Virus record (IMG/VR): IMGVR_UViG_2529292907_000022 | Strand: one strand, 5' to 3' | Source: a virus | Lineage: Duplodnaviria; Heunggongvirae; Uroviricota; Caudoviricetes | Length of the DNA: 5,226 nucleotides | In this document: piece by piece, positions 1 through 5,226 of the stretch | Position numbering within the stretch: the stretch's first letter is position 1 | Layout: every line of letters begins with the position of its first letter | Notes under the pieces: generated by a model | What the model saw: the letters and a program-made list of their open reading frames with translations, nothing else | Told to the model about the DNA's origin: nothing | Databases searched by the model: none | Program-made: the position numbers and the translations under genes

Positions 1-249
1 ATGCGTATTGAAATCTGCATAGCCAAAGAAAAAATGACTAAAATGCCAACCGGTGCTGTGGATGCGTTAAAGGAAGAATTAACCCGACGCATCAGTAAAC
101 GTTATGACGATGTAGAGGTGATCGTAAAAGCTACCAGCAACGATGGCCTTTCTGTTACGCGCACCGCCGATAAAGATTCAGCTAAAACTTTTGTTCAGGA
201 AACTCTGAAAGATACCTGGGAGTCTGCTGACGAGTGGTTTGTTCACTAA
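1..249 (+). CDS. DinI-like protein (DinI family SOS modulator), complete 82 aa
   Basis: ATG at 1, TAA at 247-249. Translation [82 protein letters not shown] has the DinI hallmarks as I remember E. coli DinI (MRIE..IAK start, RRI, LSV, ETWESADxWFV C-terminus) and the right length (~81 aa). Promoter and any LexA box would lie upstream of the window. Confidence 0.8.
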
Positions 250-350: not shown

Positions 351-379
351 CATAATCCCAATGATTACTCCCTGACAGG

Positions 380-715
380 GTTCGTAGGCCACTCAATATC
401 AGGTGCAGTTGATGTATCAACACGGTTCAGTAACACCCGATACTTTTTCTAGGCTTCCACCACCAGCACGACAAGATGCCGCATACAGTGAACCAGTCAG
501 TCCAGTTTTCAGACAACCAGTGCGTCACCTTTTTGAAGGCGCTTTAAAGCACGTTTTAATCCAGGTCGGCCTGTCCTTGTTCCGCTTAATTTATCTTCAA
601 ATATTTGTTCATATCCTGCACAAACAAGAGCGTTTCGTTGCAGATCTGTATTCTGGTCATTTGTTGATACCCTTACATAGCCAATCAGCACGCTGAATCT
701 CCCGTCCAAAAGCAC
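380..715 (-). pseudogene. Din-family serine recombinase / DNA invertase (Gin/Pin/Cin/Hin-like), disrupted remnant
   Basis: Minus-strand ORF 509-715 encodes (M)LLDGRFSVLIGYVRVSTNDQNTDLQRNALVCAGYEQIFEDKLSGTRTGRPGLKRALKRLQKGDALVV, which matches the N-terminus of Gin/Pin-type invertases including the catalytic-serine motif YVRVSTNDQ. The likely true start is the in-frame GTG at 689-691 (VLIGYVRV = canonical MLIGYVRV), preceded by gggag. The same frame continues *KLD*LVHCMRHLVVLVVEA*KKY...: TGA at 509-511 where the conserved Trp of VVWKLDRLGRS is expected, TGA at 497-499 where Arg is expected, TAG at 449-451, and further stops. Recognisable similarity fades by about position 400. The C-terminal helix-turn-helix domain cannot fit before the dinI-like stop at 249. 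Confidence 0.8.
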
Positions 716-745
716 AAATCATGCCATGCAGGCCAGAAACCGCCA

Positions 746-771
746 TTATCTAAAACCTCGGTTTACAGGAA
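746..771. other. Left crossover site for the invertase (26-bp gix/pix/cix-like)
   Basis: ttatctaaaacctcggtttacaggaa: two imperfect inverted half-sites around a central tc (758-759). It differs by one base from the Mu gix sequence as I recall it (TTATCCAAAACCTCGGTTTACAGGAA). It is an inverted match (22/26, 12-bp core identical) to the site at 3743-3768 and lies about 30 bp upstream of the invertase start. Confidence 0.8.
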
Positions 772-1953
772 ACGGTAAATCAGGCTTCTGGCGCATTACA
801 GAAAAAACAGAACGGCGCAGATATTCCAGGAAAAGATACCTTCATCAAAAATATTGGGGCCTGCCGCGCATATAGCGCATGGCTGAATATTGGTGGCGAT
901 AGTCAGGTCTGGACAACCGCGCAATTTATTTCGTGGCTGGAGAGTCAGGGAGCATTTAACCATCCTTACTGGATGTGCAAAGGCTCATGGACTTATGCAA
1001 ATAATAAGGTCATTACAGATACAGGTTGCGGAAATATTTGTCTTGCAGGTGCTGTGGTGGAAGTTATTGGCACTCGCGGCGCAATGACCATACGCGTTAC
1101 CACGCCGAGCACGTCCAGCGGTGGCGGAATTACTAACGCTCAATTCACTTATATTAATCATGGTGATGCTTATGCTCCTGGCTGGCGACGAGACTACAAC
1201 ACGAAAAATCAACAACCTGCATTTGCTTTAGGGCAAACAGGAAGCACTGTCGGAAATGATAAAGCTGTTGGCTGGAACTGGAATAGCGGGGTCTATAACG
1301 CAAACATTGGTGGCGCATCGACATTAATCCTCCACTTCAATATGAATACGGGGAGCTGCCCTGCTGTACAGTTCCGCGTGAATTACAGGAACGGCGGTAT
1401 TTTTTATCGTTCAGCCCGTGATGGTTATGGTTTTGAAGCCGACTGGTCCGAATTTTACACCACCACCAGAAAACCTTCAGCAGGAGATGTTGGTGCACTG
1501 CCGTTATCTGGTGGTCAACTGAATGGTGCACTGGGTATCGGAACATCCAGTGCTCTTGGCGGTAATTCGATTGTATTGGGTGATAATGACACGGGCTTTA
1601 AACAAAATGGCGATGGTAATCTGGACGTTTATGCTAATAACGTCCATGTTATGCGCTTTGTTTCCGGCGGCATTCAAAGTAATAAAACCATAAATATTAC
1701 AGGGCGTGTTAACCCCTCGGATTACGGTAACTTTGATTCCCGTTATGTGAAAGATGTTCGACTTGGTTCACAGCAATATTATGGAGTGAACAACTGGCAA
1801 ACATGGAATTTCCAGTGCCCTTCAGGTCATGTATTGTCTGGTATTAATGTTCAGGATACAGGGTCTAACTCTGCCGATAATATAGCGGGCGTTTATTACA
1901 GACCCGTTCAAAAGTATATAAATGGCACCTGGTATAATGTAGCGAGCGTTTAA
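754..1953 (+). CDS. Silent alternative tail-fibre C-terminal (receptor-binding) cassette, Sv'-like; promoterless, starts inside the crossover site
   Basis: Frame 1 is open from 754 to TAA at 1951-1953 with no start codon until 973: [79 protein letters not shown]... It shares a near-identical core ([48 protein letters not shown]) and the C-terminal motif INGTWYN with the expressed fibre tip. Inversion at the central dinucleotides would fuse it in frame to the constant part: ...AAVIEYLGL + QETVNQ... Confidence 0.8.
1360..1436 (+). repeat. Internal inverted repeat, copy A (77 bp, perfect) within the silent Sv' cassette
   Basis: cctgctgtacagttccgcgtgaattacaggaacggcggtattttttatcgttcagcccgtgatggttatggttttga is the exact reverse complement of 3327-3403. 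Flanking sequence stays similar with mostly synonymous differences. Confidence 0.8.
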
Positions 1954-1954
1954 T

Positions 1955-2483
1955 ATGATGCACTTAAAGAACATAAAAGCGGGTAATGCTAAAACACTGG
2001 AACAGTATGAGTTAACAAAGAAACACGGAGTTATCTGGCTTTACTCTGAGGACGGAAAAAACTGGTATGAGGAAGTGAAAAACTTTCAGCCAGACACCAT
2101 AAAGATTGTTTACGATGAAAATAATATTATTGTCGCCATCACCAGAGATGCCTCCACGCTTAATCCCGAAGGTTTTTAGCGTCGTCGAGGTTCCCGATAT
2201 AACGGCCAATCGTCGGACCGATGATTCCGGTAAGTGGATGTTTAAGGATGGAGCTGTGGTTAAACGGATTTATACGGCAGACGAACAGCAACAACAGGCC
2301 GAATCACAAAAGGCCGCATTGCTTTCCGAAGCTGAATCAGTCATCCAGCCGCTGGAACGCGCTGTCAGGTTGAATATGGCAACAGACGAGGAACGCACAC
2401 GACTGGAAGCATGGGAACGCTACAGTGTTCTGGTCAGCCGTGTGGATACGGCAAATCCTGAATGGACACAAAAGCCTGAATAA
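1955..2483 (+). pseudogene. Tail fibre assembly chaperone Tfa' (Mu U'-like), split by a +1 frameshift at a T5 run
   Basis: ATG at 1955 overlaps the Sv' stop (taATATGATG). The N-terminal frame [74 protein letters not shown] stops at TAG 2177-2179. The protein continues in the +1 frame as [32 protein letters not shown]...PEWTQKPE to TAA 2481-2483, colinear with the minus-strand paralogue ([18 protein letters not shown]). The break is at ttttt 2173-2177; T4 would restore the frame. Confidence 0.7.
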
Positions 2484-2488
2484 AAATT

Positions 2489-2508
2489 AAGGCCCGCTAT
2501 CGGGCCTT
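2489..2508. terminator. Hairpin at the centre of the invertible segment between the convergent tfa genes; likely intrinsic terminator, best on the minus strand
   Basis: aaggcccg-ctat-cgggcctt: perfect 8-bp stem, 4-nt loop. It lies 5 nt after the tfa' stop (2481-2483) and 3 nt after the tfa stop (2512-2514). On the minus strand the stem is followed by aattttta; the plus-strand tail (gtctcatt) is weaker. Confidence 0.5.
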
Positions 2509-2511
2509 GTC

Positions 2512-3044
2512 TCATTCAGGTTGTTCGGGAAATGTTACTGGCAGGCTGGAGGTGTCTGTAGATTCGACTTTCTGCGCATAGAGCATCCACCCGGTTAATT
2601 TTTGTTTATTCTCGTCGGAAATGATGCCCAGCCGTAGCTGTGAGTCCCATAGCTGGGTTTTATCCCTGACAAGTTGCAACAGGCTTTGCTTTTCATTCTC
2701 TGCCTGCTGCCTCTGTTCCTCCTCGGTATAAGTTCGCTTTATCACTGCGCCATCTTTGAACATCCATTTACCCGAAATATCAGCACGGCGATTTGCTGTA
2801 ATATCAGGTAATTCAACGACGCTTGCGCCTTCCGGATTAATTGCTGAAACATCCTTTTCAATACAAATAATAACGCCGTTATGGTCATAGGCCATTTTCA
2901 ATGTGTCTGGCCGGAAATTCTTTTGTTCCTCATACCAGTTTTTCCATCATCTGAATAAAGCCATTTGATGTTAAATTGCTTTGTTAGCTGGTATTGCTCT
3001 TTTGTTTTAGGATTGCCAGCAGTAATGTTTTTTAAGTGCATCAT
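2512..3044 (-). pseudogene. Tail fibre assembly chaperone Tfa (Mu U-like) for the expressed fibre, split by a -1 frameshift at an A5 run
   Basis: Minus-strand ATG at 3044-3042, 2 nt after the fibre stop. The N-terminal frame [35 protein letters not shown] runs into junk and a TGA at 2898-2900. The rest, (W)[50 protein letters not shown]...FPEQPE, is in another frame (ORF 2512-2901). The break is at ggaaaaactgg (plus-strand ttttt 2939-2943); the intact paralogue at 2053-2063 has ggaaaaaactgg (A6). Confidence 0.7.
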
Positions 3045-3046
3045 GA

Positions 3047-5226
3047 TTAAATACTCCCCGCGTTATACCACGTCCCATTAATGCAATACTGAATTGGCCT
3101 TGCCTGAGTTGTATCAATTAATTCATCACGGTTTCCGTTAACTGAACCCGTAACGACATAACCTGACCTGTCAGACCAGCCGGGACCATTCCATGTCCGA
3201 ACAGATGACAGACCGCCAAGGCGAATACCTGTAATAAACCTTGAGTTACATTCTGCCTGCGTGTATGCACCAACATCTCCCGCAGAGGGTTTGCGGGTCG
3301 TGGTGTAAAACTCTGACCAGTCAGCCTCAAAACCATAACCATCACGGGCTGAACGATAAAAAATACCGCCGTTCCTGTAATTCACGCGGAACTGTACAGC
3401 AGGACAACTTCCTTCTCCCATATAAAAATGAATAATTAACGTTGATGCACCACTAATAGTTGCGTTATAAGCTCCGCTACTCCAGTTCCATCCAACTGCT
3501 TTATCATTCGCAACGGTGCTTCCTGTTTTCCCTAAGGCAAACGCACCAACATGACTTGCTTTTAATGTGATATCGGAGGAACCATCAAAAGCCACATTGC
3601 TTATTTTCCTGGCAGTTTTTAATTTTGCAGCTGTAGAAGCATTGCCGGATAGTTCACCAGAAAGGCCACTGCTGAATGTTTGTCGATTAGTCCAGGTATT
3701 CGCTGTACTGAGTAACGGTATTTTCTCCCCTCTTGTGCCGAGTTCTCGTAAACCGAGGTATTCGATAACGGCAGCAACGGTCGATTTCGCAAGAATATCC
3801 CGCCCGACTTTTGTCAGGGTTGCCAGGCTGGCGACATCATTCCCCGTAAAATACGGAAACTTGCCTGCCGCAGTAGTAAGTCCGGCCAGCGCCGTCAGGG
3901 TGGCATCTTTCGGTTGCTTACCCGCAAGCGCGTTAGTCATGGTGGTCGCAAAATTCGGGTCGTTGCCCAGCGCCGCAGCCAACTCGTTCAGCGTATTCAG
4001 TGCATCAGGTGACGAATCTACAAGGGCGGCAATCGCAGCCATAACGAAAGCCGTGCTTGCGATTTGGGTATTATTCGTTCCCTGTCGCGCAGTTGGCGTT
4101 GTTGGCGTTCCGGTCAGTGCAGGACTATTTAAGGGCGCTTTCTTGTTCGTTTCACCCATTACCGCCTTAACCGCTTTTGGCGTTGCCGCCAGTGACTCGG
4201 AAGTGCTGTTGGTCGCACTGCTGAGCTGTACTATCACCTTTTTCGTCGTGCTCGCATCCTCCAGCGCCACGGCGGATGCAATATCCTCTGCCCGTTTTGC
4301 TGCTGTCTCGGCGCGCGTTGCCGCGGATTCAGCAGCAACTTTGCTCTGAGATGCAGCCGTCGCACTGCCTGCCGCCTCTGATGCTTTCGTTGTTGCTGTC
4401 GTGGCACTACCTTTCGCTGCTGACGCTTGTCTGGTCGCCTCATCTTTTGAAGCAGACGCAGATGATGCCGATGACGCCGCTGAACTGGCTGACGATGCGG
4501 CTGCCGCCTTAGAGGAAGCAGCATTGTCTGCTGAAGTCTTTGCATTTGTTTCAGAGGTTTTTGCTGCAGAAGCAGACCTCGCTGCTGCAGTGGCTTGCTC
4601 AGTGGCTTTGCCAGCCTTCGTGTGGCTGTCGAAGCGGATGATGCGGCGCTTTCTGCCGATTTTCCGGCGGCGGTGGCACTGGCTGAGGCCTGCCCCGGCA
4701 CTTGTTGACGCGGCACTGGCAGATAATGCAGCCGCTGTTTTGAACCTGCCGCAGCTGAGGCGCTCTGTCCCGCTGCTGTTTCAGAAGACTTAGCGTTCGT
4801 CTCGGACGTTTTTGCCGCCTTCGCGGAATTTCCTGCCGCCGTTGCCGAGGAAGCTGCACTACTGGCACTTGATGATGCATTCGTTTCTGAAGATTTCGCT
4901 GCCTCTTTTGAGGCCGCCGCACCCCGTGCCGAGGTGGCAGCTTCTGACGCCTTCGTGGTCGCTGTGGATGCAGAAGTGGCTGCCGATTTTTGTGATGCTG
5001 CGGCATTCGTTTCTGACGTTTTCGCGGCACTGGCGCTGGTAGCTGCCGCGCTTTTTGATGACTCTGCAGCAGCAGCACTTTTTGCTGCTTCACGGGTCTT
5101 TGTCGATGCCGTTCCTGCGCTGGAAGACGCTGACTGAGCCGACGACGCGGCCTGTCCGGCTGACGTGCTGGCTGCACGTGCTGAGCCTGCAGCATCAGTC
5201 GCATGAGTTGCCGCCTCGCTGGCTGA
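3047..5226 (-). CDS. Side tail fibre protein (lambdoid Stf-like shaft with Mu S-like invertible C-terminus); 5' end outside window; frame disrupted around 4620-4745
   Basis: Minus-strand ORF 3047-4270 ends ...[12 protein letters not shown] with stop at 3049-3047. Its frame stays open upstream and carries the Stf-like stretch [41 protein letters not shown]...[31 protein letters not shown]. From 5226 down to about 4742 a different frame carries the repeat shaft ([26 protein letters not shown] and similar). The right crossover site lies inside the coding sequence at ...[19 protein letters not shown]. Confidence 0.85.
3327..3403 (-). repeat. Internal inverted repeat, copy B (77 bp, perfect) within the expressed fibre tip
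   Basis: Reverse complement of 3327-3403 equals 1360-1436 exactly. Both copies encode the shared core ...[28 protein letters not shown]... Confidence 0.8.
3743..3768. other. Right crossover site (26 bp), inverted relative to the left site, inside the fibre coding sequence
   Basis: ttctcgtaaaccgaggtattcgataa compared with the reverse complement of the left site ttcctgtaaaccgaggttttagataa: 22/26 identical, 12-bp core gtaaaccgaggt identical. It sits at the constant/variable boundary of the fibre (VIEYLGL). Confidence 0.8.
4280..5226 (-). repeat. Ala/Ser/Thr-rich low-complexity repeat region of the fibre shaft (degenerate [12 protein letters not shown]-type repeats)
   Basis: Hand translation gives runs such as [99 protein letters not shown]-rich GCN-codon composition leaves long spurious open frames on both strands. 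Confidence 0.7.

Follow-up and report, generated by a model that had tools for sequence, protein, structure and literature searches.

The stretch of DNA analysed here (the window, 5,226 nucleotides) is the right end of a lambdoid prophage. From the end of the prophage inwards it holds a dinI-like gene, the remnants of a tail-fibre assembly gene and of a DNA invertase, and an invertible tail-fibre segment that reaches into a side-tail-fibre gene, arranged as follows.

1-249, plus strand: dinI-like gene (Pfam DinI, E=1e-19), the prophage end
318-350: GC-rich hairpin, CCGCAGCACG..CGTGCTGCGG, read from the sequence, between the tfa fragment and the dinI-like gene
365-462, minus strand: 3' end of a lambdoid tfa gene, its last ~31 codons (..EA(W) followed by 27 residues), with the stop TAA at 367-365
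456-486, minus strand: pin-type invertase piece (MRHLVVLV), 30/31 identical to e14 pinE
487-500, minus strand: densely substituted 14-nt patch over the catalytic DRLGRS, containing TGA 499-497
501-691, minus strand: gin-type invertase 5' coding stub, codons 1-64, GTG start at 691-689
607-670: putative Fis-dependent recombinational enhancer from a motif scan, with Fis-like site I at 655-670 and Fis-like site II at 607-621
746-771: invertase-proximal crossover site, 26 bp, gix/pix type, TTATCTAAAACC-TC-GGTTTACAGGAA, central dinucleotide at 758-759
759-3755: invertible tail-fibre segment of about 3.0 kb, recognised from ORFs, translations and homology to the Mu G, P88 and SfMu cassettes
~760-1953, plus strand: Sv', from ORFs and translations
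1955-2483, plus strand: tfa', frameshifted
2512-3044, minus strand: second tfa, frameshifted
3047-3742, minus strand: Sv, the variable C-terminal part fused to stf
3743-3768: distal crossover site, 26 bp, TTCTCGTAAACC-GA-GGTATTCGATAA, inside the stf reading frame
5226 down to 3047, minus strand: stf (side-tail-fibre gene), which crosses the distal crossover site and continues into Sv

In the closest E. coli relative (L001) the corresponding gene is annotated as DinI-like and adjoins an integrase, and the hairpin beside it in the window has the look of a probable terminator. The N-terminal part of stf (window 4167-5226) showed 89% identity to Rac stfR, placing the cassette inside a lambdoid stf gene. 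Its architecture is that of invertible tail-fibre segments: two C-termini are mirrored, each with its own tfa, with one set on the constant N-terminus, and they are bounded by two inverted 26-bp sites that have a central GA/TC and an identical core of 12 bp, the proximal site (746-771) being an inverted repeat of 3743-3772. We compared the half-sites with those tabulated for prophage Phi4 of E. coli EC958 (PMC4134206, Table 3). The outer half of the proximal site is that of the Phi4 3' site and its inner half that of the Phi4 5' site, so the pairing in the window is opposite to that in the EC958 reference; the outer half of the distal site is that of the Phi4 5' site. Among relatives of the window, half-site combinations swap exactly at the crossover site.

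The two tfa genes are split by frameshifts, and the constant part of stf shifts frame near 4620-4740. With stf and both tfa genes frameshifted, the window copy is a decaying relic in which flipping of the segment may be without consequence; the ST131 Phi4 copy, unlike this degraded prophage copy, has stf and both tfa genes intact. Within the segment, 280-nt inverted repeats (84% complementary) occur in both Sv genes, at 1218-1497 and 3266-3545, and the sequence between them (~1498-3265), which holds both tfa genes and the C-termini of Sv and Sv', runs the opposite way in the window to that in Mu, P88 and the closest E. coli copies, L001 and L002. This inner inversion is a second one, apparently made by homologous recombination, and it swaps the receptor-binding tips between both Sv genes.

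We then examined the invertase remnant. A reading made from the letters alone (the sequence-only reading) had described its first ~60 codons as free of stops and almost identical to functional invertases, and this description was borne out. No stop interrupts codons 1-60 (GTG at 691 down to 512), and the first 191 nt differ from Mu gin at 7 positions (7/191) and from P88 and the EC958 Phi1 invertase at 10 each (10/191); over 501-691 identity to these three was 93-97%, with homology stopping at 501. After repair of the stops, the translation matched Pfam Resolvase at residues 3-83 (E=2.7e-21, profile positions 2-91 of 145). Set against the Gin/Pin/Hin/Cin invertases, the remnant keeps an N-terminal resolvase domain with the active-site Ser9 (..YVRVSTNDQ.., with the VRVSTNDQ motif present). 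The catalytic domain is incomplete, lacking the DRLGR arginines and the E helix (DRLGRS now reads D*LVHC); invertase-derived sequence stops at about codon 79, where the tfa 3' end follows, and there is no C-terminal HTH_7 DNA-binding domain. The absence of HTH_7 marks the remnant as a pseudogene stub and not a functional member of the family, and with catalytic arginines, E helix and DNA-binding domain all missing, the stub cannot encode an invertase.

Three in-frame stops interrupt the remnant. TGA 499-497 is fixed in every copy examined, while TGA 511-509 and TAG 451-449 are polymorphic and occur in about half of 36 copies, the TAG lying in the tfa-derived part, where it replaces TGG. The copies fall into two main stub haplotypes, distinguished by three linked sense-strand G-to-A differences at window positions 612, 509 and 450 (also 644 and 492). 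Haplotype CGGGG has only the fixed TGA 499-497; haplotype TAATA, that of the window, adds C27Y inside Fis-like site II together with the two polymorphic stops, and was found beside both inner half-sites.

The sequence-only reading had also seen a sharp step in conservation after the open codons, and here the statistics agree. Against Mu and against P88, the maximum chi-square breakpoint fell at nt 191, that is, window 500/501, at a level reached in 0/2000 permutations, and BLAST matches to intact Mu-like/P2-like phages and prophage cassettes all end exactly at 501. Per-site divergence from the intact genes is abrupt at 500/501, a pattern that uniform decay cannot give, as had been argued. Rightward from 501, homology extends to 3545-4250 in intact cassettes. 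What had been read beyond the step, some 40 codons of colinear but decayed invertase with three in-frame stops, survives only in part: the stops are there, but just ~15 codons (500-456) are invertase-derived, and they are not a decayed continuation of the gene before them.

The dense substitutions attributed to all of those ~40 codons are confined to the 14-nt patch at 500-487. Only 3/14 positions separate gin from pinE here, whereas the patch is 9/14 away from gin and 8/14 from pinE, and its codons at the DRLGR motif are of the GACYGACTGGGTCRC type. The nearest patch allele we found, that of the frameshifted invertase of plasmid p13P477T-2, is 5/14 from the window and 4/14 from the L001 remnant; the patch may go back to a third allele that was inactivated by three or four changes, and among the sampled lineages none fully accounts for it. 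A search of the phage collection for a closer relative of 452-530 returned a best match of just 82.7% over 75 nt. Next comes the pin-type piece, 486-456, which differs from gin-type genes at 13-14/31 positions (about 55-58% identity); being 30/31 identical to pinE, it is not decayed.

The remainder is not invertase. The tfa fragment showed 88% identity to the tfaR 3' end and, together with all sequence down to position 1, 98.9% identity to phage PhiR49_2. Since PhiR49_2 has the same tfa fragment, hairpin and dinI module without any invertase, the tfa scar predates the invertase fusion or is independent of it. In this inducible lambdoid phage (L045), positions 2477-2962 correspond to window 462-1, and the fragment is 24 nt longer upstream. 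The repaired translation matched Pfam Caudo_TAP at residues 79-105 (E=3.7e-12, profile positions 104-130 of 131), so that of the full-length Tfa domain only the last 27 profile positions are represented, as in a 3' gene fragment, and PGAP annotates a partial tfa gene at the fragment in E. coli copies. The motif VDTS, taken earlier for an invertase remnant, is part of a 21-residue string of the Tfa C-terminus, and its likeness to invertase is coincidental. Decay in place of 380-511 was rejected, 368-462 being tfa-derived. The pin and tfa parts are joined in frame on a TGG microhomology (..GTGCTGGTGG/TGGAAGCC..). The step is a mosaic (recombination) junction, and the remnant a gin/patch/pin/tfa chimera.

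We traced the gin-type part in the other direction to establish the extent of the conserved block. Window 501-1497 showed 97% identity to P88, 501-4243 matched phages 503458 and 520873, and 1218-4250 matched EC958 Phi1. The high-identity block runs from 501 via the leader, the crossover site and the whole cassette to about 4250. The step at 501 thus marks where a P2/Mu-type module of ~3.7 kb ends; its opposite end lies near 4170-4250 in stf, where Rac-like sequence takes over. Position 501 is also the end of the longest DNA stretch common to gin- and pin-type genes (..CTGGTTGTCTGGAA.CTGGA..). The alternative that the sequence-only reading had offered to enhancer selection, exchange with an intact paralogue, essentially matches these data, with a mosaic junction at 501.

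These observations suggest a course of events. The block from ~4250 to 501 is of P2/Mu lineage; it takes in the C-terminal part of the tail fibre, all of the invertible segment, the crossover site and nt 1-191 of the invertase. Its boundary would stem from homologous exchange with a P2/Mu-type cassette, since a crossover between diverged gin and pin invertase genes would be expected to resolve at 501. Past 501 there follow the scrambled patch, the pin-type piece and then an illegitimate in-frame fusion to tfa at TGG, the tfa fragment with its downstream hairpin and dinI forming a module already present at the prophage right end. The donors, and whether truncation or exchange came first, can be inferred at most, because no intact gin-then-pin gene was found: searched with a synthetic hybrid, 5,426 complete E. 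coli genomes yielded no intact gene that begins as gin-type and continues as pin-type, and the best match over the full length was pinE at 89.5%, the level expected of a chimeric query.

That the recombinational enhancer lies inside invertase genes is textbook knowledge, and a 48-bp spacing between the centres of its Fis sites was reportedly described by Johnson and colleagues in 1987. An enhancer in the 5' part of this gene had been proposed from the letters alone, and a scan for paired Fis sites did return two Fis-like 15-mers 48 bp apart, at nt 23-37 and 71-85 of the gene (centres nt 30 and 78), matching 6/7 and 7/7 consensus positions. The pair sits at the same positions in Mu gin, P88, pinE and Chris1, whose invertase genes are all intact, and the putative enhancer is identical to Mu gin at 62/64 nt. 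Measured from the crossover centre (758/759), its site centres at 662 and 614 are about 97 and 145 bp away. As in sis enhancers, the candidate element lies within the invertase 5' part, about 100 bp from one crossover site, and has two Fis-like sites at the ends of ~65 bp, a feature that is weak alone. The loose Fis motif matches about 2 times per 100 nt of the window, and 5% of shuffles produce a pair at 48 bp, so that positional homology carries the enhancer argument.

Known enhancers of this kind are 65 bp long with a Fis site at each end, stand about 100 bp from a hix site and are required in cis by wild-type Gin/Hin-type invertases (PMC3798978); their location inside the invertase gene is given in that article and in the title of Kahmann et al. 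1985 cited there. The window has a stretch homologous to the Hin/Fis enhancer (Johnson & Simon 1985; Kahmann et al. 1985; McLean et al. 2013, PMC3798978), with the difference that this copy, a putative enhancer, resides in a pseudogene. Homology and motif together indicate that an enhancer homologue is present in the stub, and it is plausible that this putative element serves in cis for an invertase acting in trans.

The sequence-only reading had gone further and made the enhancer a possible cause of the step: the invertase would have decayed in place while purifying selection on the enhancer, used by a trans-acting invertase, kept the 5' stretch. In keeping with this, the enhancer homologue is inside the conserved part, the segment flips in strains whose cis invertase is dead (below), and wild-type invertases of the Gin/Hin type require the enhancer in cis (PMC3798978). 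The extent of the conserved block decides otherwise. It spans about 3.7 kb (501 to ~4250) and not 64 bp, about 60 times the enhancer length, and it ends 106 bp past the enhancer, at a point beyond which the sequence is foreign (pin-type, then tfa) and not decayed gin. With high identity reaching far beyond the 64-bp enhancer on both sides, enhancer selection does not explain the step. We also looked for constraint on the enhancer in 36, then 57, remnant copies from viral, metagenome and genome collections. Neither set gave a signal of enhancer-specific constraint in this underpowered test: among the 57 copies, variable sites numbered 4/64 in the enhancer and 18/181 in the stub and leader on either side of it (Fisher p=0.45; low power), and pi was 0.0177 in the enhancer against 0.0200 in the flanks. 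We consider selection on the enhancer an improbable cause of the step, and the mosaic junction the better account.

A protein-level explanation, in which the stub is kept as a small protein (a 60-64-aa resolvase-domain fragment that might, for example, modulate trans invertases), would draw on the 60-64 open codons with the native start in all copies and on the 64-72-aa 'recombinase family protein' that PGAP calls in many genomes. The end of this reading frame is polymorphic, however, falling at TGA 511-509 in about half of the copies and otherwise at the stop 499-497. The fragment has amino-acid changes relative to gin (C27Y, D41G, T57A) and is without catalytic arginines, dimerisation helix and DNA-binding domain, and its preservation is already explained by the young age of the block. 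A retained small protein therefore seems scarcely credible to us.

We next asked whether the segment still inverts where this dead gene is present. We located the pin-tfa junction in 36 viral and 25 metagenome contigs. The illegitimate join being unique, every copy with it goes back to an already truncated gene. Among species representatives the sole match to the junction was L050 (JAEWTL010000008.1, 2.5 kb), from a MAG labelled 'Bacillota bacterium' and most likely a mis-binned Escherichia prophage fragment, so that this match is uninformative on taxonomic range. In the viral contigs, each type of inner half-site (TTCCTG.. or TTCTCG.., together with its inside flank) was seen attached to one outer half-site or the other, with reciprocal pairs among them. 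Two of the relatives, L025 and L027, match at 99.5-99.9% identity once a clean inversion of 3119 bp, bounded by both crossover sites, is allowed for. Of the complete E. coli genomes, 152 showed one junction state and 376 the other, with many ST131 on both sides. The ST131 isolates U12A (2012) and U15A (2015) come from one patient and have near-identical chromosomes (PMC6692316). Between them, the flanks are 100% identical over 5,097 and 8,138 bp, the 3,119-bp segment is inverted with an interior identical apart from the crossover sites, and the stub translates exactly as in the window, all three stops included. The segment is thus present in both orientations in relatives with the same stub, and these strains show that ~3.1 kb invert precisely at the crossover sites next to an identical dead allele.

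Both orientations could in principle arise from RecA-dependent recombination or from import of whole cassettes, without site-specific inversion in trans, and the enhancer would then be irrelevant. The cassette does have long inverted repeats (280 nt, 84% identity), and the window is inverted between them when compared with Mu and L001. Yet exchange is always confined to the identical 12 bp at the core of the 26-bp sites, despite the much longer inverted repeats inside the segment, which favours site-specific over homologous recombination, and half-sites re-assort there repeatedly and across cassette types. The identity of U12A and U15A in flanks and interior likewise speaks against such an origin, as does the occurrence of both orientations in a single EC958 culture, where the Phi1 segment was inverted in ~50% of reads and the Phi4 alternative was recovered as a separately assembled contig (PMC4134206). 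We regard RecA-dependent recombination or cassette import as a highly improbable source of the two orientations. The enzyme behind the site-specific inversion is most likely encoded by another prophage, such as Phi1 in ST131: an intact gin-type invertase that acts in trans and would use Fis and the enhancer kept in cis in the stub. EC958 Phi1 encodes an intact gin-type invertase of 199 aa, whose DNA is 95% identical to stub nt 1-191 with homology ending at 501.

Several relatives show other states of the locus. In L013 (IMGVR_UViG_651053022_000007, ~3460 in invertase orientation) decay has gone further: a deletion of ~113 bp has brought the inner half of the crossover site up against ..CTGCAACGAAACG.. 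within the enhancer, removing the outer half-site, the stub start and Fis-like site I. L035 (IMGVR_UViG_2695420708_000013, 5498-7400 in invertase orientation) has the stub and tfa fragment and, ~1.2 kb downstream of the stub, a second identical crossover site with a complete gin-type invertase gene, so that dead and live invertase copies stand in tandem. Beside the tail-fibre segments of phage vB_EcoM-606R2 (L048, 540-854) and plasmid p13P477T-2 (L049, 540-1098), the pin-type invertase is a truncated ORF of 104 aa in the former and frameshifted in the latter; the two were damaged independently, and both retain the enhancer region.

The locus and its flipping in trans have already been described in E. 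coli ST131, and in this respect it is ordinary and largely known. For EC958 Phi4, Forde et al. (2014, PLoS One 9:e104400, PMC4134206) reported a 3106-bp invertible tail-fibre segment and a 'severely truncated' invertase without the HTH domain (EC958_1582), and proposed that the Phi1 invertase acts in trans on the Phi4 segment. The window holds the same element, with identical outer half-sites (TTATCTAAAACC.., TTATCGAATACC..) and the same HTH-less truncated invertase. It differs from Phi4 in being another, more decayed prophage copy with a dinI-integrase flank, in its frameshifted stf and both tfa genes, in having a different Sv' allele beside the stub, and in the inversion of its inner part between the 280-bp repeats. 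Invertases that act in trans between prophages are also known from PinQ/PinR/PinE and from Fin of Fels-2, which acts on the Salmonella H segment (PMC12529663). To this the present analysis makes modest additions, namely the enhancer, the chimeric make-up of the stub and the tfa scar; the EC958 report (PMC4134206) makes no mention of an enhancer, of gin/pin/tfa chimerism or of a tfa scar.

Comparison with intact systems places these additions. The Mu Gin/G segment and the P88 and EC958 Phi1 cassettes are 90-97% identical to the window from 501 to ~4250 and share its crossover sites, its mirrored Sv-tfa sets, an invertase reading away from the segment and an enhancer at the same position, in the first ~90 nt of the invertase gene. 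In contrast to them, the window has a non-functional invertase, cut after codon 64 of the gin-type part, and a cassette grafted onto a lambdoid stf. The e14 Pin/P segment resembles the window in the 31-nt pin-type piece of the stub, and differs in that its cis invertase is intact while the window keeps just the enhancer-bearing stub. Taken as a whole, the locus is very probably a dead invertase stub with a mosaic step, left beside a Mu-G/P2-type cassette in a lambdoid prophage, with a segment that flips in related strains, most likely in trans.

For the reading of pseudogenes, this locus shows that what looks like graded decay may in fact be several recombination junctions in a row, and that short colinear motifs can mislead, VDTS having come from a different gene. 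For the biology of invertible switches, it is a clean natural case of a switch that has outlived its own recombinase: in the pandemic clone ST131 the segment still flips, and in one patient it did so between isolates taken three years apart. Should flipping require the stub's enhancer, the locus would be evidence that a piece of a dead gene can survive as a cis-regulatory element. It is a doubtful but conceivable step further that the stub is kept as the only cis enhancer of an orphan switch, with selection acting on its DNA after the death of the invertase. Were that so, host or prophage would keep varying a tail-fibre-derived product by means of invertases borrowed from other prophages, and the varied product would be a determinant of host range or an anti-phage decoy like StfE2.
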